Shown here piece by piece: positions 2,949 to 21,146 of a stretch of DNA of 43,721 bases. The DNA comes from a virus. The DNA is taken from IMG/VR virus record IMGVR_UViG_3300035146_000036; one strand, given 5' to 3'. A model generated the notes under the pieces. The model was not told where the DNA came from. It searched no databases and saw only the letters and a program-made list of their open reading frames with translations. A program made the translations under genes and the position numbers. The number at the start of each line of letters is the position of its first letter. Position 1 is the first letter of the stretch.

Positions 2949-3284
2949 ATGAAGTTTGTAAATTTGACGCCAGATGTAATTAGACTTGAAACGGAATTTG
3001 GTGTAATAAAGATAGAGAGTTCTGGATATGCCAGAACATCAATAATTGTTGAAGATTTGGATCCAATTGATGACCCATTAATGGGTTATATTATGAGAAA
3101 GAGAATTAAACATGGTCCAGTAGAAGGGTTGCCTGGACCAGAAAATGGCACGATTTATATCGTATTAAGATCAACTAAACAACATATTTCAAATCGTTCG
3201 GATTGCCTTGTGCCTGAATATGAGCTATTTCCTATTAGGGATGAAGATGGTAATGTAATAGGTTGTCGCGCATTGGCTGATTAG
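2949..3284 (+). CDS. hypothetical protein, paralog B (111 aa)
   Basis: Tandem paralog of 2148..2474. Confidence 0.7.
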   Translation: MKFVNLTPDVIRLETEFGVIKIESSGYARTSIIVEDLDPIDDPLMGYIMRKRIKHGPVEGLPGPENGTIYIVLRSTKQHISNRSDCLVPEYELFPIRDEDGNVIGCRALAD

Positions 3285-3296
3285 TGATTAGGTTAA

Positions 3297-3373
3297 ATAA
3301 GATGTTTGGAAGAAATTTTGTCTGCAACTTCTCCTTTTGATGATGCAGTGAAATATGTTGAAAAAAGTTGTTG
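3297..3373 (+). pseudogene. 3'-terminal remnant of the 2532..2882 gene (internal deletion in second duplicate)
   Basis: ~90% nt identity to 2815-2890. The leader hairpin core aagatgtttgga is fused directly to the gene's 3' end. Confidence 0.55.
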
Positions 3374-5179: not shown

Positions 5180-5252
5180 AGAAAAATAGCTCATTAGGTA
5201 GAGCGATAGATAGAGGATCTATAGGTAACAGGTTCAATTCCTGTTTTTTCTT
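5180..5252 (+). ncRNA. aberrant tRNA-like RNA (perfect acceptor, D and T arms; anticodon loop UAGAGGA lacks U33)
   Basis: agaaaaa/tttttct acceptor, gctc/gagc D stem, ataga/tctat anticodon stem, acagg-ttcaatt-cctgt T arm. Confidence 0.4.
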
Positions 5253-5286
5253 CCCACACTACTTTTACTACTATCTCTCCTCAATA

Positions 5287-5319
5287 TTTTATCGCTTCAA
5301 AAGAAGCGTGGATTGAAAC
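5287..5319 (+). repeat. solitary CRISPR-repeat-like unit 1: hairpin (cgcttc-aaaa-gaagcg) + TGGATTGAAAC
   Basis: Shares TATCG-hairpin-TGGATTGAAAC architecture with 8445-8479 and 16377-16413. Confidence 0.45.
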
Positions 5320-5327
5320 AAAAAAGA

Positions 5328-5474
5328 TGACATCGAGGACTAAATAGACGGTTCAGCTAGTGGATTTCTAATCCGCAGGTTATAGGTTCGAATCCTATTT
5401 TGTGTACCATATTCGCACAAGTAGCTCAAAGGTAGAGCAGCGTTAGTTTTCGTTTATTGAAATATCTCGATGTT
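5328..5474 (+). ncRNA. candidate Y RNA (YrlA-like): circularly permuted tRNA-like module enclosed by a long-range stem
   Basis: The 3' half of a tRNA (anticodon arm gtgga-UUUCUAA-tccgc, T arm atagg-ttcgaat-cctat, acceptor tttgtgt, A, CCA) at 5359-5409 is followed, after a 5-nt linker, by a 5' half (gcacaag-ta-gctc-aaaggta-gagc) at 5415-5438. Flanks 5330-5343 and 5443-5473 are complementary. Confidence 0.4.
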
Positions 5475-5510
5475 ATTTTTATAAGTATACTGGGAACTGA
5501 ATAGACAGTT

Positions 5511-5583
5511 CAGGATATAGAGCAATTGGTAGCTCATCGGCTTTGCACGCCGAAAGTCGTTGGTTCAAATCCAACTATCTTTC
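5511..5583 (+). tRNA. tRNA-Ala (UGC)-like (G3:U70 present, C1:U72 mismatch)
   Basis: D arm gagc-aattggta-gctc, anticodon stem tcggc/gccga with loop UUUGCAC, T arm gttgg-ttcaaat-ccaac. Confidence 0.55.
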
Positions 5584-5737
5584 ACGAACACTGTTTGTTA
5601 AAATATCCCAGTTTTTTCACTTCTGATTCCGAGAACTATACAGACATTTCAGGCAAGTATGCAAGTATGGTTGATAGTGTTTGTTAAACTGTCTCGGGTT
5701 TTTTTATTCTGGGACAATAATAACCAGGAGGTGTGTG

Positions 5738-7408
5738 ATGAATAGCATTACACGGATAGATGATGTTTGGTCGATAGTTGGAGTTGAGCCTGTTAGAATA
5801 GCGGATGATGTTTGTGCTTTTTTGGATGTGAGTACTACATCTTTTGGTAGGGCGACACATTATAATAGTCGTGAGAAGCAGTTGCATACTGAAGCAGCGG
5901 TTCATGGTCGTCTTTTTGATATATCGAGAGATTTGTATCAAATTTTGTTGTCATTACCAGGTACTACAGATAGAGCAAGACAAATAGGGATGTCTGCTTT
6001 GTTAGGAAGTAAACAGAAGAATGGCAAAGAATGTCTTTTGACTGGTACTATGGAACGAAGGGTTCTCGAGAGTTTTGTTAAGAGTTTACCTCCCCAAAGG
6101 ATGTTGAAATTATTTGATGCTTTTCGTGGATTCGGGAATGAGTTTGGAGCGAAAAAGTCAAATAATGCTCGAACAAGAAAACTTATTTTGAGGACTATTT
6201 TGAATAGTCCACGGTTAGAATTATGGACGATAAAATATCGTTCAAAATTGCAGAGAATTTTATCTCATGCATGGGGAAGAAGTCTCGGTTCTGCTATTGG
6301 TGCTGTAGCTGCCAAAAAGAGACGTAATGACAAAGAAAAATCTATGCTTAAAAAGCATGTTTTGAGTTATTTGGGTAGTAATTGTGGAAAAGTTGAAGTT
6401 GTAAATTTAAACCATGTTTTACAGTGTATTGCGTTTTTGTACGGGGAAAGAGACCGGATAAGTGATGACATGAAACTGTTGCAAAGTTTCATTAATGCAA
6501 AAACAAATATTTCTGATGGTTTGAAATTGCCGGCAGAGATAATTGAAGGAATAAGAAGCACTTATCATAAAAATGTTAGTGCATCAGAATTATTGAAGAT
6601 GCGTGCCGATGTAGGAGGTATAAGAACTCGTTACGAGAAAAGGGTAGTGCAGAAAAGGGTGAAAGAAGTTGGTGGAAAAGTAGAGATGAATCCACTGGAT
6701 TATGATGCAGTAGAACTTTATATCTATGCTTTTGAGGTTGGAGCAGATAGTGAAATACTTGAAGCATTAGATAAAAAAGCCAAAGATGCTGCAAAATTGT
6801 TGCCTGTTAGTTATGATAAGCTTGCAATTATTGTAGATGCATCGAAATCCATGGAAGGGAGCAAAGAGCAACCGATGAGACCGTTGGCAACTGCACTCTC
6901 TATTAGAGATATGTTGCAGAGGTCAGCAATTGAGTCAACGGTTTTGTATTGTGGTGGATTTGCAGATACTAAAGATATGCCGGATATATCTTCTAAGATA
7001 AAGATAGTAAAACCATCGTATGAAACAGAATTGGCTCAATCATTGTTAGATGCTTTGGTTTATGAACCTGATGCAGTATATGTGATTAGTGATGGATATG
7101 AAAATTCTCCTGCTGGACGATTTGGAGATGTTCTTAGAAAGGCTCGAGAAATAGGTATAGATGTTCCTGTAATCCATTGTAATCCTGTATTTGCATCTGA
7201 GACGGGTTCGGTTAGGGCATTGTGTGAAGGGATAGAGAAGGTTACTACATTGCCTGTGAGAAGTCCTATGGCAATGGGGTCTGGTATTATTCGTGGATTA
7301 ATAGAATCAGACCCGAGACGTGGATTGAACAGTATATTAAGGATTGCTTTGACTGGTGATTCTCCGTTGGCTGGATTGCTGACAGAGGGAGATGGAGGTG
7401 TGTCATGA
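5738..7408 (+). CDS. rsr: Ro60/Rsr-like protein (helical TROVE-like N-terminal region + C-terminal vWA domain with MIDAS)
   Basis: vWA MIDAS motifs LAIIVDASKSM ... SDGYEN, aligning with Ro60 LLAIDVSASM ... TDCETN; helical ~350-aa N-terminal region; SD aggagg before ATG 5738. Confidence 0.5.
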   Translation: MNSITRIDDVWSIVGVEPVRIADDVCAFLDVSTTSFGRATHYNSREKQLHTEAAVHGRLFDISRDLYQILLSLPGTTDRARQIGMSALLGSKQKNGKECLLTGTMERRVLESFVKSLPPQRMLKLFDAFRGFGNEFGAKKSNNARTRKLILRTILNSPRLELWTIKYRSKLQRILSHAWGRSLGSAIGAVAAKKRRNDKEKSMLKKHVLSYLGSNCGKVEVVNLNHVLQCIAFLYGERDRISDDMKLLQSFINAKTNISDGLKLPAEIIEGIRSTYHKNVSASELLKMRADVGGIRTRYEKRVVQKRVKEVGGKVEMNPLDYDAVELYIYAFEVGADSEILEALDKKAKDAAKLLPVSYDKLAIIVDASKSMEGSKEQPMRPLATALSIRDMLQRSAIESTVLYCGGFADTKDMPDISSKIKIVKPSYETELAQSLLDALVYEPDAVYVISDGYENSPAGRFGDVLRKAREIGIDVPVIHCNPVFASETGSVRALCEGIEKVTTLPVRSPMAMGSGIIRGLIESDPRRGLNSILRIALTGDSPLAGLLTEGDGGVS

Positions 7409-8412
7409 GTAGAAACATATCGATGGAAGACATCCTTTTTGGGATAGGTGCAGGAAGAGCACAATCGGTAGGAAATATGGAGGTTATTCCTTTGATTTCT
7501 GAAGATCGTGACGAGATAATTGATGAAAGTATGTATGGGACTCCTGCAGATGTGGAGATAGGTACTCGGAATTATGGCGAAGTTGATATGAGGAATGTTT
7601 CTGACCGAGTGAATTTTGTTCCTCCTGGTGCTGGTTGGGTTGTTAAAGAAGCTGCTCAAGACCATGCTATAGGAAGTGGAGAGATTCTTGGTCCAAAGAC
7701 ATCAAATCTTGTGAAGACTGCAAGATGTATTCAGTCTAATCAGGGTGGAACTATTTCGAAAGCAGCTCATGAGATGCTTGTTTTGCCAGTTGAACTTCGT
7801 GGTATTGCTTTAGCTAAAAGAAATATGCATGGATATAGTGAGATGTGGGATGATCTTGCTAATTTTAATTCTCAACATGGTATTCAAGGGTTTAAAGAAC
7901 TTGCTATTTTCTTGCAGGAATTTAAGCGACAAATGGATCAATTTGTTGCTGAGTTTGAGTTGGTACCAAATCAAATAGGAGCAGTGATTATTATAAATGG
8001 TAAAGTTATCGGTATTGAAATTGCTCCTACAAGAGATTATTGGCAATATGTTTGGACACCTTTGATTAGGGTATGTTATGGGTCTTTGGCATCTGAGTGT
8101 TATAAGAGGTCAAGTGTGGACCATAGAAATATACCTATTTCGAATAGGGATCCATTAGAGCTTGTTGAAAATACACTTTCTGGATTACGGGATGCTGTTT
8201 TGAAAACTGACCAGGATAGGATAGATGCTGTTAACGTTTTTGTTTCTTCTCTAAAAAAGAAGAAATTTTTGGTTGGTAATGTAGAACAGAATAGGAGTGA
8301 CCATTATTTATTATCTGGTTTGATACGTCCAGATCGTGAAAATGGACAGATTGAAGGTCAGATTGTTGTTACAGAAAAGACTATTCCGTTCTTTTCTGCT
8401 TGTGGTGTTTGA
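7405..8412 (+). CDS. hypothetical protein (335 aa), translationally coupled to the rsr-like gene
   Basis: ATGA overlap with upstream stop; no recognised motif. Confidence 0.65.
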   Translation: MSRNISMEDILFGIGAGRAQSVGNMEVIPLISEDRDEIIDESMYGTPADVEIGTRNYGEVDMRNVSDRVNFVPPGAGWVVKEAAQDHAIGSGEILGPKTSNLVKTARCIQSNQGGTISKAAHEMLVLPVELRGIALAKRNMHGYSEMWDDLANFNSQHGIQGFKELAIFLQEFKRQMDQFVAEFELVPNQIGAVIIINGKVIGIEIAPTRDYWQYVWTPLIRVCYGSLASECYKRSSVDHRNIPISNRDPLELVENTLSGLRDAVLKTDQDRIDAVNVFVSSLKKKKFLVGNVEQNRSDHYLLSGLIRPDRENGQIEGQIVVTEKTIPFFSACGV

Positions 8413-8444: not shown

Positions 8445-8479
8445 GTTATCGACCTATTAAATAGGTTGTGGATTGAAAC
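8445..8479 (+). repeat. solitary CRISPR-repeat-like unit 2: GTTATCGACCTATTAAATAGGTTGTGGATTGAAAC
   Basis: 35-nt unit starting GTT, 8-bp hairpin, ending ATTGAAAC. Confidence 0.45.
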
Positions 8480-9752: not shown

Positions 9753-9958
9753 GGAAAAAGTTATGAAACGACATGATAAAAACAGGATTAATAATGTAGT
9801 AAAAACAAAAGGTATTGTTTTGTCCTGTATCCTCTCTTTATCATTTTTCTTTTCATATTTGAGTTGGTAATTCTAGTCGGTTGACCGACAGAATTATTTT
9901 ACCATGTAGTTCTTGTACATGGGTAGATTGTTCATTGACAATAGAATAGTCCATAATT

Positions 9959-10045
9959 TGAGGTATGACAGAGTGGTAATGTGCTCGCCTGGAAAGCGTT
10001 GGCCATCTAGAGATAGGTGCGGGGGTTCAATTCCCTCTGCCTCAG
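9959..10045 (+). tRNA. tRNA-Ser (GGA)-like, type II, weak anticodon stem
   Basis: Acceptor tgaggta/tgcctca, D stem aca/tgt, loop CUGGAAA, long variable arm, T arm ggggg-ttcaatt-ccctc. Confidence 0.5.
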
Positions 10046-10051
10046 AAATCA

Positions 10052-10139
10052 GGAAGGTAACCGGCTGGATCAGGAGCATGTTTTGAAAACATGTGGCGCA
10101 TTGAGAGATGCGTTATGGGTTCGAGTCCCATACCTTCCT
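10052..10139 (+). tRNA. tRNA-Ser (UGA)
   Basis: Acceptor ggaaggt/accttcc, anticodon stem catgt/acatg with loop UUUGAAA, variable hairpin cgcat/atgcg, T arm atggg-ttcgagt-cccat. Confidence 0.8.
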
Positions 10140-10164
10140 CTAAATGACATCTAGATGATAGGTG

Positions 10165-10178
10165 TGAACTCGAGTTCG
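10165..10178. promoter_or_regulatory. palindrome tGAACTCGAGTTCG (copy 2, 13/14)
   Basis: 13 nt upstream of ATG 10191. Confidence 0.55.
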
Positions 10179-10190
10179 TTTGGAGGTGAA

Positions 10191-10370
10191 ATGTTAAGAA
10201 AAGATGAAGGATATGATGAAGTTAGTAAAGCATTAGATATGTATGAGGATGATATAAGTATGTTTGATGCTAGAGATGAAAGGGTTGAAAAGGAAATTGA
10301 TAAGCTTTTGGACGGAATTAATTTAGAACAATCGCTTAAGAATTTTGTAAGAATGTTTATTGGTGATTAG
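10191..10370 (+). CDS. hypothetical acidic small protein (59 aa)
   Basis: ATG 10191 with SD ggagg. Confidence 0.5.
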   Translation: MLRKDEGYDEVSKALDMYEDDISMFDARDERVEKEIDKLLDGINLEQSLKNFVRMFIGD

Positions 10371-10458
10371 GAGGATTGGCGGAAAGGTATCGCAGCGGAT
10401 TCGAAATCCGTAGTCATCGAAAGATATCGGTGTGAGAGTTCGAATCTCTCATCCTCCT
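10370..10458 (+). tRNA. tRNA-Ser (CGA)
   Basis: Acceptor ggaggat/atcctcc, D stem gcg/cgc, anticodon stem gcgga/tccgt with loop UUCGAAA, long variable arm, T arm gagag-ttcgaat-ctctc. Confidence 0.8.
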
Positions 10459-10536
10459 CTGTTTGTTGTTAATCTAATATCAACAAAGTAGTTTGTGTTG
10501 CAAAAAACGAGATTTGTGAGCAACAAAATGTATTAA

Positions 10537-10624
10537 GGGAAGTATTAATAAGGCTAGATGGTCTGGCAGAAGATTGTAAATCTTTTCCTCTAGTAGGCAT
10601 GTGGTTCGATTCCATCGCTTCCCA
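10537..10624 (+). tRNA. tRNA-Tyr (GUA)-like with enlarged D region
   Basis: Acceptor gggaagt/gcttccc, anticodon stem gaaga/tcttt with loop UUGUAAA. The D region is ~6 nt too long. Confidence 0.45.
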
Positions 10625-10628
10625 ATAT

Positions 10629-10711
10629 GGAAGGTTACGTTCAAGGGTAAACGGGAAGATTGCTAATCTTCTGTCATTCGTGGCTTACAGGTTCGAATCC
10701 TGTACCTTCCG
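10629..10711 (+). tRNA. tRNA-Ser (GCU)
   Basis: Acceptor ggaaggt/accttcc, D stem cgt/acg, anticodon stem gaaga/tcttc with loop UUGCUAA, 15-nt variable arm, T arm acagg-ttcgaat-cctgt. Confidence 0.8.
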
Positions 10712-10769
10712 CAAGTTTTTGTGATAGTATCTTTTTGAGAAAAATGAAATTTCAGAAAGGTATAAAATT

Positions 10770-10943
10770 ATGAAAGAGATTCTTGAACGATTAGAGAGAA
10801 AAATTGGTTTGGGTCCTGGTGGTAAATGTAAATGTCCTGAATGTGGTGAAGAAGTAAAACATGAAACTGGTGTATCATGTGATAGTATAAAATGTTCTAA
10901 ATGTGGGACTAGCATGAGAAGAGTTGTTAGAGAAGAAGAATAA
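10770..10943 (+). CDS. small zinc-ribbon protein (57 aa; CxC/CxxC ... CxxC), not in supplied ORF track
   Basis: ATG 10770 to TAA 10943, read by hand between tRNAs. Confidence 0.4.
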   Translation: MKEILERLERKIGLGPGGKCKCPECGEEVKHETGVSCDSIKCSKCGTSMRRVVREEE

Positions 10944-10953
10944 GGGTTAATAC

Positions 10954-11038
10954 GGGACGGTGGCGGAAATAGGTAGACGCAAGGGACTTAAAATCCCTCG
11001 GGGGAAACCTCATACGAGTTCGATCCTCGTCCGTCCTA
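10954..11038 (+). tRNA. tRNA-Leu (UAA)
   Basis: Acceptor gggacgg/ccgtcct, D stem gcg/cgc, anticodon stem aggga/tccct with loop CUUAAAA, long variable arm, T arm acgag-ttcgatc-ctcgt. Confidence 0.8.
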
Positions 11039-11044
11039 CAATAT

Positions 11045-11132
11045 GCCCGTGTAGTCGAATTTGGTATAGACGGTGGATTCAAAATCCATGGCAACTGAAA
11101 AGTCATTCTCGGTTCGAGTCCGAGCACGGGTA
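11045..11132 (+). tRNA. tRNA-Leu (CAA)
   Basis: Acceptor gcccgtg/cacgggt, D stem gtc/gac, anticodon stem gtgga/tccat with loop UUCAAAA, 18-nt variable arm, T arm ctcgg-ttcgagt-ccgag. Confidence 0.8.
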
Positions 11133-11139
11133 CTATAAT

Positions 11140-11211
11140 GGAACGGTAACTCAGTAGGTAGAGTGCTGGACTGAAAATCCAGATGCGACAGTTCGATTCT
11201 GTCCTGTTCCA
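11140..11211 (+). tRNA. tRNA-Phe (GAA)
   Basis: Acceptor ggaacgg/ctgttcc, D stem actc/gagt, anticodon stem ctgga/tccag with loop CUGAAAA, T arm gacag-ttcgatt-ctgtc. Confidence 0.85.
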
Positions 11212-11230
11212 CTAAAAATTATGGACTATT

Positions 11231-11479
11231 TTATGATAGGTCAATTTTTATCCATTTGTTGATGAGATTTTGATAAGTATCTGCAAATGGGCTTGATAAT
11301 TTTTTCAGTATTGATGGAATTTCTTCCCAGTTTGTTGTTGGAAGGATAGTAGATATTCCAAGGAGACCTTCGATTTCAACAAGATCATCTGTTGATTTTG
11401 ATTCAAATATTAGGTCATCTATAATAGTTAGGTCTTCTATTAAGTCATTTATTGGTTTGTTTTCATTGATTAGATTCAT
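11231..11479 (-). CDS. hypothetical acidic protein (82 aa)
   Basis: Minus-strand ORF; no motif. Confidence 0.5.
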   Translation of the reverse strand: MNLINENKPINDLIEDLTIIDDLIFESKSTDDLVEIEGLLGISTILPTTNWEEIPSILKKLSSPFADTYQNLINKWIKIDLS

Positions 11480-11483
11480 TTTT

Positions 11484-11714
11484 TTACCTTATTAATTGAT
11501 AAATAGTAGAAATTCTGTTTTGTTTCATTTTAATTCCAGTTATATAGCCTTTGATTGTTCTTTCTATTTGTCCTATTTCATTGTCATGAAATTTTGATTC
11601 ATGAGCAATTGATATTAATCTTTCTAGTAAATTTGAAATTTCATTAAATGAGAAATCTATTTCATTTCTTTTTTCTGATATTTCTTCGATGAGTTCATTT
11701 CTATTAGTTATCAT
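11484..11714 (-). CDS. hypothetical protein (76 aa)
   Basis: Start moved to the ATG after SD aaaaagga. The leader hairpin ctcaaca-AGA-tgttgag (11731-11747, minus) lies just upstream. Confidence 0.5.
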   Translation of the reverse strand: MITNRNELIEEISEKRNEIDFSFNEISNLLERLISIAHESKFHDNEIGQIERTIKGYITGIKMKQNRISTIYQLIR

Positions 11715-11826
11715 TTTTATTATCCTTTTTCTCAACATCTTGTTGAGTATCTACTTTGATTTTAAGACATTAAAAATGGTTTGTCAACTTTTTTATGCGA
11801 ACTCGATATTCTTTTTCTTTTTATTA

Positions 11827-11970
11827 TTACCAATATTTAGCCCCTTTGAGGTTAGCCCCTTTGAGGTTGTACCCTTCGAGGTATGTTCCAAAGAAATCGA
11901 TATCACGCAATTCTCCTTGCGAACAATATAGAATTTCATTCGTTATTGGATGCTTTTTAAACATATTCAT
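11827..11970 (-). CDS. candidate small protein (47 aa) with tandem NLKGA repeats
   Basis: Read by hand. ATGA overlap with the stop of 11967..12260; covers three 15-bp direct repeats. Confidence 0.3.
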   Translation of the reverse strand: MNMFKKHPITNEILYCSQGELRDIDFFGTYLEGYNLKGANLKGAKYW

Positions 11971-12260
11971 TTTTTGCTTCCTTTGTTATAATTAAAACAG
12001 ATATGGATAAGAGGGTTATAATCATATGCCCATCTTGGGATAATTGTTCCACAAGTAGCACAGAAAACATCAGCTGCTTCTCTGGCTTCCTCAGAAGAGC
12101 AGAATTTGTTTTCGCACTTATGATTACAGTAATTTTGTTTTTTTTCTCCATGTTTATTGAATTTGCACTCGTCAACTTTTTTTGATGTGCATATCCATTC
12201 CCATTCATGTTGAAATTGCATGTAATTATGGATAAATAGTTTGCAGTGATTTGGTTTCAT
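11967..12260 (-). CDS. Cys-rich hypothetical protein (97 aa)
   Basis: ATG 12260. Its 5' UTR on the minus strand carries two AACAAGATGT motifs including hairpin cgaaca-AGA-tgttcg (12267-12281). Confidence 0.6.
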   Translation of the reverse strand: MKPNHCKLFIHNYMQFQHEWEWICTSKKVDECKFNKHGEKKQNYCNHKCENKFCSSEEAREAADVFCATCGTIIPRWAYDYNPLIHICFNYNKGSKK

Positions 12261-13611: not shown

Positions 13612-14193
13612 ATGGAATATAAAAATGGAGATTTTCGTGTTTGGTGGATACCACAGGTTCCTATGGAGGCTTTTTATGTATATGTTCAGTCTTTAGTTGA
13701 AGCGAAGAAGATTTTAACTGTTTTGGCTGATTATGACATGTTTCAGTATAATAATAATGTTAAACCAGATTATTGTAATGTAGGAGGTCTTCAAATATAT
13801 GAGGAAGGGGAATGGTTTGATTGGGAATCTGAAGATGGTGAATCTATAGATAAGTTAAGTATTTTTGAACTTGAAAGACTTAATGCTTGTGTATGTGAAT
13901 ATGATAATATTCCTGATGCTATTTTGTTAGCTATTAATAATCATGTTTTAAGAGGACAACATTGTGGTCATTTTGTTACGGCTGTACTCAGTAATGATTT
14001 GATAGAAGCAGTTAATAGGGCTGATGATGAATGTCAGAAGTGTTTACGGTCAATTGTTAGATATTTATATAATAGATGTCCAGGTGGGTGTTGGGGATCA
14101 AAAAAGGAGATGGAAGAATGGAGGAAAAATGGTGGAACAGAAGGAAAGGAAGTTGGAGATATAGGAGGTTTGATTTATCCAAGAGGGATTTGA
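13612..14193 (+). CDS. hypothetical Cys-rich protein (193 aa)
   Basis: ORF. Confidence 0.6.
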   Translation: MEYKNGDFRVWWIPQVPMEAFYVYVQSLVEAKKILTVLADYDMFQYNNNVKPDYCNVGGLQIYEEGEWFDWESEDGESIDKLSIFELERLNACVCEYDNIPDAILLAINNHVLRGQHCGHFVTAVLSNDLIEAVNRADDECQKCLRSIVRYLYNRCPGGCWGSKKEMEEWRKNGGTEGKEVGDIGGLIYPRGI

Positions 14194-14195
14194 TT

Positions 14196-14906
14196 ATGAA
14201 AACTATGAAAATAATAATAATAAGTATAATTTTATCTATTTCAATTAAATCTGAATCATACAGTTTATATGAGACTAGTGAAGGTAAAAATGCAAGATGG
14301 AGGGAATCATATATTGAGATAGTTTTAGATGATAGTATGGAAGGAATTGGGGATAAAAATGATGTTGAATATATTATTAAGGAATCGTTTAATTTATGGA
14401 TAAATGATGCTAATTTACCATTTTTTATTGAAATATTTTGGGATGATTGTAGTGAAACATTGAATGATGATGATAATTGTATATTTGTCGTTTATGAAGA
14501 TTGTAATAGACCAAAAAATAAAGCTGCTACTACATATCTTAATGTTATTCCATCTACTGGAAAGATTATCGGATTTGATGTAATAATTAATGCAGAGGAT
14601 TGGGATTGGGATTTGTTTTGTAAAGACAAAGATGGTCTTTGTTTGCAAAGAGTAATGTTGCATGAATTTGGACACATATTAGGAATAAGTCATTCTGATA
14701 ATCATGACGCAATAATGTATAAATCATTATTGAACAAATATGATAAAGTAAAAGAACTACATCAAGATGATATTGATGCAGCAGATGCATTATATTCTAA
14801 TTTTATTGTTGAAGAACGAGATTTTTATGAATTAGCATGTTCGTCATCTATTATTGGAAATGATAATTCGAATAGTATTTTTGATTTATTTTTATTGTTT
14901 TTATAA
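14196..14906 (+). CDS. secreted metzincin/matrixin-like zinc metalloprotease (HEFGHxLGxxHS + Met-turn)
   Basis: N-terminal hydrophobic signal MKTMKIIIISIILSISI; HEFGHILGISHSDNHDAIMY motif; SD agaggga. Confidence 0.65.
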   Translation: MKTMKIIIISIILSISIKSESYSLYETSEGKNARWRESYIEIVLDDSMEGIGDKNDVEYIIKESFNLWINDANLPFFIEIFWDDCSETLNDDDNCIFVVYEDCNRPKNKAATTYLNVIPSTGKIIGFDVIINAEDWDWDLFCKDKDGLCLQRVMLHEFGHILGISHSDNHDAIMYKSLLNKYDKVKELHQDDIDAADALYSNFIVEERDFYELACSSSIIGNDNSNSIFDLFLLFL

Positions 14907-14915
14907 GGAGATTTA

Positions 14916-15431
14916 ATGCTTTTTGTGACTTCAGACCATCATTTTGGTCATAAAAAAATAATAGAATATGAAAATAGACCTTTTTCATCTGTTGAAGAAA
15001 TGGATGAAGTTTTAATAAGGCGATGGAATGAGGTTGTAGGTCATGAAGATATAGTATTTTATCTTGGAGATTTTATGTTCTATGGGTCAAAGAGAAAAGC
15101 TATTGATATATTGAATCGATTAAATGGACGAAAGAATCTTATTATCCTTGGAAATCATGATAGATGTCGTAACATAGGATGGTGGGAAAGAATTGGGTTT
15201 AGACAGGCTTTGGATTGCAAATATATTTTAGGAAGGGTTATTTTGTCTCATGAACCTATACTTTATGATATAGGGGATTTCCATAATATTCATGGACATA
15301 TACATTCAGATAAATTGTCTGAAGCAAGAAATAGTAATAAACATTTTAATGTATCGGTTGATGCAACAGGATATAGACCAGTTTCAATGGATAGAATATT
15401 AGCATCAATTCAGGGAAGAGAAGATGGGTAA
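14916..15431 (+). CDS. calcineurin-like metallophosphoesterase
   Basis: DHHFGH ... GDF ... GNHD ... GHIH motifs. Confidence 0.7.
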   Translation: MLFVTSDHHFGHKKIIEYENRPFSSVEEMDEVLIRRWNEVVGHEDIVFYLGDFMFYGSKRKAIDILNRLNGRKNLIILGNHDRCRNIGWWERIGFRQALDCKYILGRVILSHEPILYDIGDFHNIHGHIHSDKLSEARNSNKHFNVSVDATGYRPVSMDRILASIQGREDG

Positions 15432-15624
15432 GAAAAAACATAGTACAAGAAGAATGTATAGACAAAGACGAAAGGATAAGGAGAATCATTTATTGTTTGA
15501 AGATGATTTTTATTTAGAAAGAAAATGTAAAATATGCGGTGCAAGTCCTGTTTTACCTAAAACTGGTATATGTTTGGCTTGTACATATGGTGAAATTGAA
15601 GAAAGGGTTGAAGATGAGTTTTAA
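15424..15624 (+). CDS. small zinc-finger protein (66 aa)
   Basis: CKICG...CLAC; overlaps upstream stop. Confidence 0.5.
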   Translation: MGKKKHSTRRMYRQRRKDKENHLLFEDDFYLERKCKICGASPVLPKTGICLACTYGEIEERVEDEF

Positions 15625-16357
15625 GATGAATGTTGTAACGGTTGAGGCTACTTTGTTGGAAGAAATGCTTGGGATGTCGCCAGATCCTAATATATATGGT
15701 GAATTTATAGCAAAAAATGCTCCAGATTCAAAGAAAATGAAGGAAGAAATGGAAGCATTAACAAAAGATCTTTCTCCTGAAGAAGCTGCTAAGATAATTC
15801 TTGATAAAGGAACAACCGTTTTCCCACGTGATGAAGATGGTATACCAATTATGTGGGATTTCCAAATGAAGGGAAATTTTAAAGATGTTTGTGGAATGCT
15901 GTATCGTGCCGAAGGTACATTATCTTCAAAATTTACAGCATACAAAAAGAAGATTGATGGTTTGATTTTTGTGAAACCACGAAAGATTAGATTGCTTGTG
16001 CCAGATGGTGGAAAGATTGGTGAATGTCAACGTCCATTAAGAGCCCAAACGGCTCGAGGTGAGATTACAGCGTTAGCAAATAGTGAAACGGTTCCAGCAG
16101 GAACTAAACTTGTTTTTGATATTGAGTATATGGATTTGAAGGGGAAAGCACCGAAGATTGTAAAAAAAGGGGGTAAAACAGTAAAAGATGAAGATGGAAA
16201 TATTGTTTGGACAAAATCAGAAATGCTTGAAACTATTAAAGAATGGCTTAATTATGGTGCTTATCGCGGTCTTGGACAATGGAGAAATAGTGGAAAGGGA
16301 ATATATGAATATAAAATAATTGAAGTTAATATGTGTGATGAAAATCATTGGAATTGA
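15614..16357 (+). CDS. hypothetical protein (247 aa)
   Basis: ATG 15614; function unknown. Confidence 0.6.
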   Translation: MSFKMNVVTVEATLLEEMLGMSPDPNIYGEFIAKNAPDSKKMKEEMEALTKDLSPEEAAKIILDKGTTVFPRDEDGIPIMWDFQMKGNFKDVCGMLYRAEGTLSSKFTAYKKKIDGLIFVKPRKIRLLVPDGGKIGECQRPLRAQTARGEITALANSETVPAGTKLVFDIEYMDLKGKAPKIVKKGGKTVKDEDGNIVWTKSEMLETIKEWLNYGAYRGLGQWRNSGKGIYEYKIIEVNMCDENHWN

Positions 16358-16376: not shown

Positions 16377-16413
16377 GTTGTGTCGCCTCATTAAATGGGG
16401 CGTGGATTGAAAC
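16377..16413 (+). repeat. solitary CRISPR-repeat-like unit 3: GTTGTGTCGCCTCATTAAATGGGGCGTGGATTGAAAC
   Basis: 37-nt unit with hairpin cgcctc/ggggcg and an ATTGAAAC 3' end. Confidence 0.45.
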
Positions 16414-17276
16414 GAAAAGGATAAGAAGACAGATGATCTGATTGTTGAGAATGGAAAAGAAGAGGAGAAGAATCGAGAAGAATCGACACGAAAAGAAATG
16501 GATAGGACTCGATAGGATAAGAATAGGAAAGGCGAGGAGTGGATTAGGTGAGAAAAGGAGATGAGTTCAACGGAGCGTATTGAGATGAAAAGAAAAGGAA
16601 GAGAGCATAAATGTTCCGACTAGAAAAGGAATAGAGATGACGAGTCTTGTGCGGAAAAGGAAATGAAATATATAGAACTGTTTTGTAGTGAACTGAAAAT
16701 GAATGGAAGTTACTAGAGAGGTTAAGATTTGAATTGAAAAGGATATTTGTTTGCGAACTCGAGTTCATTTTTAAGAAAAGGAAAGGATTCGAATCGGGAT
16801 GACTGGATTGGAAAGGAATAGGAGGGGATCCGAGGCGATAAGAACAGATTGGATTAGAAATGGAGTAGAACGGACTTGAGCTAAACTGAAAAGGAAGGGA
16901 ATAGACGCTAGTTGAGATGAAAGGATAAGGATTAGTCCTGACATGAACTGAGATGAGACGAAATGGATCTGTGTTGAGGCGATTGGTTGAGAGAGGAAAA
17001 GGAATAGAGAACACTGGAATTGAATGGAAATAAAATGGAAGGGAAAGGAAAGGCGTCGAGCGGAGATGATGAGAAATGGTGTGGAGAAGAACGGAGTCGA
17101 AGTGAATAGGTTATAGAGGAAAAGGAAAAGATAGGAAGAGAATAGATTCGAGCAGAGAAGGATTCGAGAGGAATTGAACTGATGTGAAGTGATATGGAAC
17201 AGAATAGAGCATTGCAGAGCAAAATGTAGAAGAGCAGAAAAGGAATAGAAGGGATTGGAGCAGAAAAGGAATTGGA
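16414..17276 (+). repeat. ~860-bp strand-biased GA-rich non-coding island with degenerate GAAAAGGAATAGA-type repeats
   Basis: No + strand ORF; ~17 copies of GAAAAGG(A) motifs. Only low-complexity minus ORFs are present. Confidence 0.6.
16754..16767. promoter_or_regulatory. palindrome CGAACTCGAGTTCa (copy 4, 13/14) inside the GA-rich island
   Basis: Sequence match. Confidence 0.45.
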
Positions 17277-17323
17277 TTTTAAAAATGTTGATTTTGTATT
17301 ATAATTGAGTAATAATATTTGTT

Positions 17324-20574: not shown

Positions 20575-20790
20575 ATGGCTGTTGGGTTGCTTGAGTCATT
20601 TGGTTTGGTTGAAAATTTCGGTAAAGAAGCAATTGATAATGGAGTAATTTCTGTTGATGATGTAATATTTGTTGCAGGAGCAAAGAAGAAAAAAGGTTGT
20701 CGTTCTATTTCGTCAAGATTGACTGTTGAAGATAGTAATCGTGTTATGGAAATAGGACAGTTGATTAAGAAATGGAAGGATATAAGATGA
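20575..20790 (+). CDS. hypothetical protein (71 aa)
   Basis: ATG 20575. Confidence 0.45.
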   Translation: MAVGLLESFGLVENFGKEAIDNGVISVDDVIFVAGAKKKKGCRSISSRLTVEDSNRVMEIGQLIKKWKDIR

Positions 20791-21146
20791 AAATAAAACC
20801 GTTTCATGATAATGTATTTGTGGAGAGAGATGAACCAGAGGAAAAGAAATCACCTGGTGGTATTGTACTTCCTTTGAATACTAAAGAAGTTCCAGATACT
20901 GCTGTTGTTTTGGCTGTTGGTCCTGGTAGGGTAATGTCTGATGGAACACTTGTTATTCCTGATGTAAAAGTTGGTGATAGGATTTTTATTGGAAGATATT
21001 CAGGTACAGAGATAAATTTTGGTCGTGAGAAACGTGTTGTTATACCTTGGAGTGATATTTTAGGTATAGTTGAAGACGAAGTTGAAGACGAAGTTGAAGA
21101 CGAAGTTGAAGACGAAGTTGAAGATGAAGTTGAAGATAAAGAATAA
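20787..21146 (+). CDS. groES: GroES co-chaperonin homolog with C-terminal (EDEV)5 acidic repeat tail
   Basis: IKPFHDNVFVER...GGIVLP...AVGPGR...VKVGDRIFIGRYSGTE matches Cpn10; 12-bp tandem repeat 21072-21143. Confidence 0.8.
   Translation: MKIKPFHDNVFVERDEPEEKKSPGGIVLPLNTKEVPDTAVVLAVGPGRVMSDGTLVIPDVKVGDRIFIGRYSGTEINFGREKRVVIPWSDILGIVEDEVEDEVEDEVEDEVEDEVEDKE

Follow-up and report, generated by a model that had tools for sequence, protein, structure and literature searches.

A lone Cas7-fold gene and its 5.15-nt periodic array: a candidate two-part module of phages

Proteins of the Cas7 family polymerise on single-stranded CRISPR RNA (crRNA; CRISPR, clustered and regularly interspaced short palindromic repeats), which they hold in stacked 5-nt segments. 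Here we analysed a purine-rich island at positions 16414-17276 of a 43,721-nt viral sequence, IMGVR_UViG_3300035146_000036 (the window, to the whole of which all coordinates refer), and found that it carries an array with a period of about 5.15 nt, downstream of a gene for a predicted Cas7-fold protein. Such an array is always found beside a lone Cas7-fold gene, in hundreds of unrelated phages, and it may be the nucleic-acid track on which the protein assembles. In contrast to the known Cas7 backbones (Csm3, Cmr4, type VII Cas7, Csf2), there is here no cas operon, no Cas5, Cas10 or Cas11 and no CRISPR array, and the window's protein scores under the cut-off of every curated Cas7 model. The spacer of a crRNA is ~30-40 nt long and free in sequence, whereas the putative track has a 5.15-nt period, extends over 100 to >1,000 nt and is constrained in sequence. 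The type IV-B Csf2 filament of PDB entry 7JHY, which lies on non-CRISPR RNA in an unknown, non-defence role, belongs to a system that keeps Csf1, Csf3 and Cas11 and binds heterogeneous cellular RNAs, unlike a single protein with a dedicated, encoded periodic track.

Two kinds of anti-CRISPR (Acr) are also close. Solitary repeat units have been shown to act as RNA anti-CRISPRs (Racrs); RacrIC1 sits 11 nt past acrIC5 on one transcript, and on RacrIF1 Cas7f forms a filament that is over-long (Camara-Wilpert et al., 2023; PMC10651486). The units at 16382-16413, 5289-5319 and 8449-8479 of the window are likewise single CRISPR-repeat mimics in a viral genome without a cas operon, and the first lies just downstream of a same-strand gene, as RacrIC1 does after acrIC5. 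Racrs are, however, small RNAs of ~70-100 nt, none of which has been described with an 860-nt periodic tail or beside a viral Cas7 homologue, while the array and the gene family exist without any repeat mimic. Orphan viral cas genes (AcrIB3, AcrIB4, AcrVIA2) act as anti-CRISPRs (Katz et al., bioRxiv 10.1101/2023.06.24.545427). Like them, the gene described here is a lone Cas-homologous phage gene outside a CRISPR-cas locus; they were found by sequence similarity, enter or starve host complexes and have not been reported with a non-coding array, whereas the present family, which is conserved across phyla, has diverged too far to pass the thresholds of Cas profiles.

A more distant parallel is offered by RNAs that present one site per protomer, such as the trp leader bound by TRAP (11 G/UAG triplets with 2-3-nt spacers) and the multi-site sponges CsrB and RsmZ. 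The likeness is in logic only, namely a short core repeated with 2-3- or 3-4-nt spacers; the folds are unrelated, there are 11-22 sites there against 60-300 here, lattice-like long-range order is lacking and the CsrB sites lie in hairpin loops. A search of open-access papers and bioRxiv turned up nothing on a phage Cas7-like protein that goes with a periodic array; as far as we can tell, the array, its lattice and the pairing with the gene are undescribed, although the RAMP (repeat-associated mysterious protein) relationship is already present in automatic annotation. Because it would share ancestry with CRISPR backbones but has no defining feature of a CRISPR array or of a complete effector, the module appears to be categorically new.

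The periodic array and the gene upstream of it

The locus comprises the following features:

15614..16357, + strand: gene for a 247-aa Cas7-fold (RAMP) protein, predicted from AlphaFold2/Foldseek and a C-terminal motif
16382..16413, + strand: solitary CRISPR-repeat-like unit GTCGCCTCATTAAATGGGGCGTGGATTGAAAC, with the hairpin GTCGCCTCATTAAATGGGGCG (7-8 bp) and then TGGATTGAAAC as 11-nt tail
16414..16660, + strand: periodic array part A, ~48 units of a G-A core plus 3 nt (sliding spectral power 5-7, against a window median of 0.8)
~16661-16774: T-richer, less periodic linker that splits the array into parts A and B
16755..16766, no strand assigned: palindrome GAACTCGAGTTC within the linker
16775..17276, + strand: periodic array part B, ~96 units, the most coherent (sliding power 7-11.6)
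from 17278: sigma-70-like promoter for the next gene

A first-pass annotation of the letters alone had correctly placed the island at 16414-17276. Its base counts (A 356, G 280, T 164, C 63) amount to 73.7% purine, somewhat below the ~80% then claimed but still the highest of any 863-nt stretch in the window (mean 57.3%, standard deviation [sd] 3.9). The skew and purine plots that it had called for place the window's highest AT skew at the island, where GC skew is also among the highest. The + strand is free of open reading frames (ORFs), as had been said: the longest has 40 aa, and the three + frames contain 20, 18 and 27 stops. On the minus strand, the low-complexity ORFs described as S/P/F-rich do exist (156, 96 and 57 aa, rich in S, P, F and L), and they do so because TTA, CTA and TCA are rare on the + strand; they have no Pfam match, and the island shows no 3-nt (codon) periodicity. 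The surrounding block was said to be otherwise all + strand, which is nearly true, a small minus-strand block at 11231-12260 being the exception. Searching the array against Rfam gave nothing at gathering or E-value thresholds.

The degenerate repeats reported there are also real. GAAAAGGAATAGA occurs at 15 sites with up to 2 mismatches, compared to 0.6 +/- 0.8 in dinucleotide shuffles, and at 25 sites with up to 3 mismatches (3.5 in shuffles), while exact GAAAAGG is present 12 times (0.8 in shuffles); AAGGA and AGGAA have 16-18 copies each in the array. Their apparent 30-60 bp spacing is superficial, as the true order is a periodicity of 5.12-5.15 nt. The island's spectrum has one sharp line at this period with a power of 15.0, 23 sd over shuffles (mean 3.0, sd 0.5, maximum 4.9), and its autocorrelation peaks at lags of 5, 10, 15, 21, 26, 31 and 36. 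In 200-nt sliding windows across the 43.7 kb, the 5.15-nt line is restricted to ~16400-17280. A Viterbi parse gave ~167 units, each with a core G (0.90) and A (0.87) and then three bases that are mostly purines and loosely constrained; the step from unit to unit is 5 nt in 130 cases, 6 nt in 29 and 4 nt in 6. The 6-nt step returns at intervals of 5-7 units, which puts all units on one 5.15-nt lattice, and phase coherence holds past lags of 200 nt. When the order of steps was permuted, the lattice coherence R of part B fell from 0.87 to 0.59 +/- 0.08, with none of 500 permutations matching, and the observed R was unmatched in 0/500 permutations for 10 of the 12 arrays tested. A random mix of 5- and 6-nt steps is ruled out by this test (R 0.76-0.90 vs 0.46-0.60).

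No RNA structure beyond that due to composition was detected in three arrays (z-scores of minimum free energy -0.55, -0.97 and +0.2); together with the lack of codon periodicity, this fits an extended single strand. The island does not have the makeup of a CRISPR array. In place of three or more near-identical 23-47-nt repeats there are only degenerate 25-51-nt families with 60-83% identity, and in place of uniform unique spacers the whole 863 nt form one lattice, without repeat/spacer alternation. Tandem Repeats Finder reported no tandem array in the island, and its spectrum has no line at 60-75 nt.

For the upstream gene, the start was taken as the ATG at 15614, that at 15626 being also possible. 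Its product has neither a Pfam nor a PHROG match; it has 2,760 homologues, and an exhaustive profile search yielded 2,049 clusters at 50% identity. The AlphaFold2 model (mean predicted local distance difference test score, pLDDT, 81) matched Cas7-type subunits only in Foldseek, with E-values from 4e-9 (type VII Cas7, Csm3, Cmr subunits), and shows an RNA recognition motif (RRM)-type RAMP fold with an inserted beta-hairpin, the conserved long CQRPLRAQT..SETVPAGT, which is placed as the Cas7 "thumb". Near the C-terminus, GLGQWRNSGKG is invariant or almost so in a 40-sequence alignment; it aligns with the Csm4 sequence GIGGKRNSGYGKF as a C-terminal glycine-rich loop, and fits the loop pattern of RAMP proteins. 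On the strength of the model, the protein is predicted to have a Cas7/Csm3-type fold. By sequence profile, type VII Cas7 and the region of the Csm4 glycine loop were matched at no better than E 0.06-0.12. No curated Cas7 model was passed: Pfam gave none, NCBIfam Csm4 scored 14.7 bits against a cut-off of 55, and PADLOC Cas7 models reached E 0.003-0.013 only, for one family member. One member in BFVD (45% identity) is automatically annotated as a "Cas system-associated RAMP superfamily protein". Members from different phyla share 40-50% identity, and no effector-subunit partner was found, nor any neighbouring gene conserved across loci. In the window, an unrelated 66-aa CxxC protein (15424-15624) overlaps the start of the gene. 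One gut-phage clade (L028, L037, L043-L048, L053-L079; ~5370-5920) has a CxxC...CxxC zinc-ribbon protein directly upstream of the Cas7-fold gene, small or duplicated and with a K/R-rich tail, that is not conserved family-wide.

Pairing and conservation of gene and array across phages

We compared 85 loci of ~12 kb each (80 viral contigs and the five closest relatives) and an independent set of 79 loci from genomes and metagenome-assembled genomes (MAGs). The strongest 5.15-nt window adjoins the gene in 84 of the 85 viral loci, the exception being a truncated locus, and in 74 of the 79 others, downstream in 63 and directly upstream in 11. Whether the array lies downstream or upstream, its purine-rich strand is always the gene's coding strand. 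Windows with a power above 6 make up 864 of 9,016 near the gene, 4 of 16,903 at more than 2.5 kb from it, and 1 of 12,323 in unrelated metagenome loci, that one being a relative of the window's phage. Second 5.15-nt arrays more than 2.5 kb from the gene were seen at ~3050-3300 of locus L124 and ~10350-10600 of L138, the sole cases among the 16,903 distant windows. The link of the array to the phage's Cas7-fold protein, as suggested by these sequences, is comparative (158/164 loci) rather than biochemical.

Across 162 arrays the period is 5.149 +/- 0.025, the median length ~420 nt (100 to >960) and the purine fraction 0.65. Averaged over 114 non-redundant arrays, the spectrum has the 5.15-nt line and its harmonic at 2.58 and no other, with nothing at 3.0, 6.0, 10.3, 31 or 36 nt; a 6-nt Cas7 register, a 31- or 36-nt super-repeat and a 10.3-nt line are all absent from it, although it rises weakly near 6 nt (0.89-1.0; median 0.58). 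Arrays mostly start within a few nt of the gene's stop codon. In six relatives (L007, L011, L087, L116, L168, L140) a strong intrinsic terminator follows the array and does not separate it from the gene, and in the window there is no terminator between the Cas7-fold gene and the array, which together suggest that the array is probably transcribed with the gene. Among the closest relatives, an ORF-free purine-rich stretch follows the gene over 1.5 kb in L001 (66% identity) and 0.5 kb in L003-L005 (81%). No conserved partner ORF was seen upstream at the loci compared.

Carriers were assigned, through bins or contigs, to Clostridia, Coriobacteriia, Bacteroidales, Planctomycetota and Acidobacteria; they range from 33 to 70% GC and include huge phages. 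The module is present in two cultured isolates, Eggerthella sp. AM16-19 (L092) and Lachnospiraceae bacterium ZAX-1 (L133). In the former it belongs to a prophage (NZ_QUCY01000020.1), with the gene at 4986-5609 of L092 and the array at ~5620-6320. No DNA similarity of the window to cultured phages was found, and there the Cas7-fold protein occurs only in 4 unannotated faecal phage records. Of three relatives whose neighbourhoods were inspected, two are integrase-bearing temperate phages, and in all three the module lies within a same-strand gene run that includes genes for single-stranded DNA-binding protein (SSB), replication or recombination. Two loci, L086 (CAYUTF010000026.1) and L176 (Ga0316578_10000013), are near-identical to the window (88-99% nucleotide identity over aligned blocks); one of them was binned in an "uncultured archaeon" MAG, which makes the host assignment doubtful.

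Substitution patterns indicate that the periodic G and the lattice are under purifying selection. Over 26 independent pairs of arrays, the substitution rate is 2.0% at the periodic G, 5.0% at the next base and 6.2-6.6% at the spacer positions. Indels between related arrays are mostly phase-preserving (26, 31, 62, 67 nt): 65% fall within 0.1 period of an integer multiple, compared to 20% expected, to which unequal recombination could contribute. The arrays of the window and L086 are 96% identical, with flanking genes at 89-94%. Two indels set the arrays apart, one of 46 nt (nine units) and the other larger; relative to the window, the 46-nt insertion is present in both L086 and L176. The core pair is GC in 112 of the 162 arrays, GA in the window's clade and in L169, and GT or GG in a few. 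As GA is found both in the window's clade (33% GC) and in L169 (56% GC), and GC in loci that span 34-70% GC, the second core base goes with the lineage rather than with GC content. Apart from those of the four closest relatives, no protein in the alignment is more similar to the window's than that of L169 (P0117, 58%).

Repeat mimics, palindrome and other features of the window

The hairpin unit that the first-pass annotation had noted upstream of the island is real (-10.7 kcal/mol, z -2.3); its likeness to a CRISPR repeat was overlooked there, as were the neighbouring gene and the 5.15-nt lattice. It lies 24 nt past the gene's stop codon, adjoins the first array unit directly and, at full length, has a single copy in the window. 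As in solitary repeat units of mobile elements, there is a single stem-loop and a conserved 3′ end: its last 18 nt are identical to the repeat of a genuine 39-repeat metagenomic CRISPR array (L247), while the match to Rfam CRISPR-DR9 (24 bits, E 0.011) falls short of the gathering score, which is 45. The scanned parts of the window contain neither a cas operon nor a CRISPR array, and the sole Cas-like gene is the lone Cas7-fold gene. The unit is kept before the array in L086 and L176, varying in the 5′ arm only, and is absent from L003 (81%), L001 (66%) and the rest of the family; since it is absent outside close relatives, it appears to be a lineage-specific insertion between gene and array and not part of the core module. 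Exact GGATTGAAAC follows different hairpins at two further sites, and a weaker case makes a third:

1143-1173: weak CRISPR-repeat mimic, inside an ORF
5289-5319: CRISPR-repeat mimic, between two tRNA genes
8449-8479 (with tail and terminator to 8524): CRISPR-repeat mimic that resembles a stand-alone small-RNA gene

At these three sites the stems differ while the structure is kept, with the same TGGATTGAAAC after each. The mimic at 8449-8479 has an AT-rich stretch and a TTGACA box upstream and, after 18 nt downstream, the terminator GGGGCTG-T5-CAGTCCC-A-T7. The array itself was also considered as a string of degenerate crRNA handles, which was rejected, as GGATTGAAAC-like copies are not enriched in it (3 vs 1.8 and 7 vs 3.9).

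The palindrome that had been singled out within the island is indeed present at 16755-16766, as one of seven exact 12-nt copies in the window (1490, 10166, 13581, 16755, 22384, 29759 and 37590; 0.04 expected), mostly in the form CGAACTCGAGTTCG. The other six are intergenic, 6-35 nt upstream of + strand start codons, and four copies are followed by a T-run; as RNA the motif forms a weak 4-5-bp hairpin only, and it is kept inside the arrays of L086 and L003-L005. Its distribution in the sequence points to a genome-wide regulatory motif, either a promoter/operator or a small RNA hairpin.

Sixteen tRNA genes, all on the + strand, lie in three clusters (92-2035, 5180-5583, 9958-11212), and the set, with four tRNA-Ser, three tRNA-Leu and duplicated Glu, Ala and Arg, is typical of such a phage. 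A sub-threshold match to YrlA (Y RNA-like) at 5358-5462 (37 bits vs gathering 69, E 8e-6) overlaps a weak tRNA-like call at 5339-5406; the distant relative L169 encodes a TROVE/Ro60 protein nearby. Also encoded are a DnaB-type helicase, a superfamily 2 (SF2) helicase, UvsX/RecA, two DNA methyltransferases and Cpn10. This Cpn10/GroES homologue (20772-21146) has a perfect (VEDE)n tail from a 12-nt tandem repeat of 5.8 copies at 21068-21136. An ARPP-1/ARPP-2 protein is encoded at 7405-8412 (E 3e-25), and the gene at 13612-14193, which matches Pfam GP17, "superinfection exclusion gene product 17" (E 2e-26), is followed by one for a secreted matrixin-type metalloprotease (14196-14906). At 34% GC, the window has a GC skew of +0.2 to +0.65 in nearly all 500-nt bins (G 10,190 vs C 4,585); the sole negative bin, 11501-12000, is within the minus-strand ORF block 11231-12260.

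Readings of the array and their significance

Taken together, the sequence evidence suggests that the island serves the Cas7-fold protein encoded immediately upstream as its cognate nucleic-acid track, and that the two form a conserved two-part phage module; we put the probability of this at roughly 0.5. The array would be transcribed with the gene, as its 3′ untranslated region, and the protein would polymerise head-to-tail on this purine-rich RNA, which lacks structure, in the manner of Cas7 on crRNA, each unit taking up one protomer. A ribonucleoprotein filament would result, with ~170 protomers here and ~80 in a typical relative; its possible roles are counter-defence decoy, RNA protection and regulation. 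In the window's lineage only, and with weaker support, host Cas5d/Cas6-type cleavage at the mimic might free the array RNA, which would then bear a genuine crRNA 5′ handle, cap the mRNA with the repeat hairpin and couple the module to interference with host CRISPR complexes. The full picture, a CRISPR-independent phage module in which a lone Cas7-derived protein forms a filament of 60-300 protomers on its own encoded 5.15-nt RNA track, with a crRNA handle in the window's lineage, is put forward tentatively, at a little under even chances. What stands of the first interpretation is a non-coding, strand-asymmetric, repeat-bearing and probably protein-binding nucleic acid; the protein-titrating RNA it offered comes near the best reading, although the partner indicated here is the phage's own upstream Cas7-fold protein and not a host factor.

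Several observations weigh against an RNA track. Canonical Cas7 steps measure 6 nt, against 5.15 here. With one protomer to each unit the period should be an integer, but the 6-nt steps are regular beyond chance, and the same 5.149 period in all lineages points to a continuous physical ruler; 5.15 nt is also half of a 10.3-bp turn of duplex DNA. The purine richness is for the most part a consequence of the unit itself and so does not count as separate evidence for RNA, and the strand-locked orientation may reflect inheritance and not selection. Overall, terminators do not follow arrays more often than expected (9/149, against a 5.5% background), no protein partner is conserved across loci, and the absence of the repeat mimic from the 81% and 66% relatives means that the CRISPR link is not a family property.

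Since 5.149 nt is half of a 10.3-bp turn, a reading in terms of duplex DNA must be kept, although we consider it unlikely, at perhaps one chance in four. The array would here be a lattice with a same-strand site each half turn, read as a two-per-turn screw by the Cas7-fold protein or another factor; it could nucleate a DNA coat, act in silencing or as a partition-like site, or be an architectural element of another kind. Its period over 162 loci (5.149 +/- 0.025) corresponds to 10.30 bp per turn, and homopurine-rich duplexes and surface-wrapped DNA have helical repeats near 10.1-10.3 bp. Long-range lattice order over 100-185 units, which a discrete model of one protomer per RNA unit does not predict, and the position of the module among replication and recombination genes in many phages also speak for it. 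On the other hand, the mean spectrum has no 10.3-nt line (0.53 vs a median of 0.58) and hence no single-face signal, the array adjoins the ORF and keeps the gene's strand on either side, and terminators, where present, come after the array. Short-repeat DNA sites such as the 6-, 7- and 11-bp centromere repeats have integer periods, and we know of no RAMP protein that binds duplex DNA sequence-specifically.

Improbable, in our estimate, is an anti-CRISPR sponge of the Racr type, which would apply to the window's lineage only and to a host system with GTGGATTGAAAC-type repeats. The mimic would recruit host Cas5d/Cas6, the 860-nt tail would act as an endless pseudo-spacer, and host Cas7, or host and viral Cas7 together, would polymerise on the tail and drain Cascade/Csm, the viral Cas7 homologue acting as an Acr. 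The mimic does lie in sense exactly before the array and 24 nt past the gene, comparable to the 11 nt between acrIC5 and RacrIC1, two further clear mimics and one weak one occur in the window, and orphan viral cas homologues can act as Acrs (bioRxiv 10.1101/2023.06.24.545427). Nevertheless, array and gene are conserved in hundreds of phages without the mimic, the family keeps its 40-50% identity from phylum to phylum and shows no tendency to follow host Cas7, the array is not enriched in handle-like sequences, and a pseudo-spacer needs no conserved lattice.

The remaining readings find little support. A transcription-primed origin, where a lasting R-loop of the purine-rich transcript on the pyrimidine-rich template would have its RNA or its displaced strand stabilised by the Cas7-fold protein, is quite improbable. 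R-loop origins are known from phage T4 and ColE1, and the non-template strand here is purine- and G-rich, non-coding and in the early DNA-metabolism part of the genome; yet there is no skew inflection, no iteron and no obvious AT-rich unwinding element, temperate relatives have separate replication initiator or organiser genes, and R-loops require neither a 5.15-nt lattice nor a conserved periodic G. The replication origin or iteron region first proposed for the island is not supported: cumulative GC skew rises monotonically through the region, no 17-22-bp iterons were found, there is no 10.3-nt spectral line, and replication genes are at least 11 kb away, with the nearest at 28-34 kb. A sponge for host factors had likewise been suggested; taken as one for a host RNA-binding protein, such as CsrA through GGA or Hfq through A-R-N repeats, it is very improbable. 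It fits the AAGGA/AGGAA-rich units of the window's lineage only, whereas the periodic core is GC and not GGA in 112 of 162 arrays, no hairpins present the motifs, and the constant partner across loci is a phage gene and not a host feature; a CsrB/RsmZ-type sponge RNA was rejected for want of structure beyond composition (z -0.55) and because the core is mostly GC. Least probable of all, and at odds with the data already, is a functionless satellite, a compositional by-product or minus-strand S/P/F-rich coding, despite the purine and G skew of the whole + strand and minus ORFs of up to 156 aa, given a lattice 23 sd over shuffles that is conserved beside one gene family across phyla, a periodic G under purifying selection, the lack of 3-nt periodicity and of Pfam matches, and arrays that cannot be aligned between 66-81% relatives, so that the minus-strand ORFs are not conserved.

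If the proposed track and filament are real, they would constitute a class of viral ribonucleoprotein that is new and widespread among temperate gut phages and huge phages, and a clear instance in which viruses have exapted a CRISPR backbone protein along with a non-CRISPR nucleic-acid partner built for it. The 5.15-nt lattice is a rare instance of long-range, non-integer sequence order under selection, one that demands an explanation from filament geometry or DNA helical phase, and its spectral line provides a simple signature for finding the module. The module might also serve as a sequence-addressable protein-RNA scaffold, and for the phages themselves it may represent a new early-gene strategy in the conflict with their hosts.

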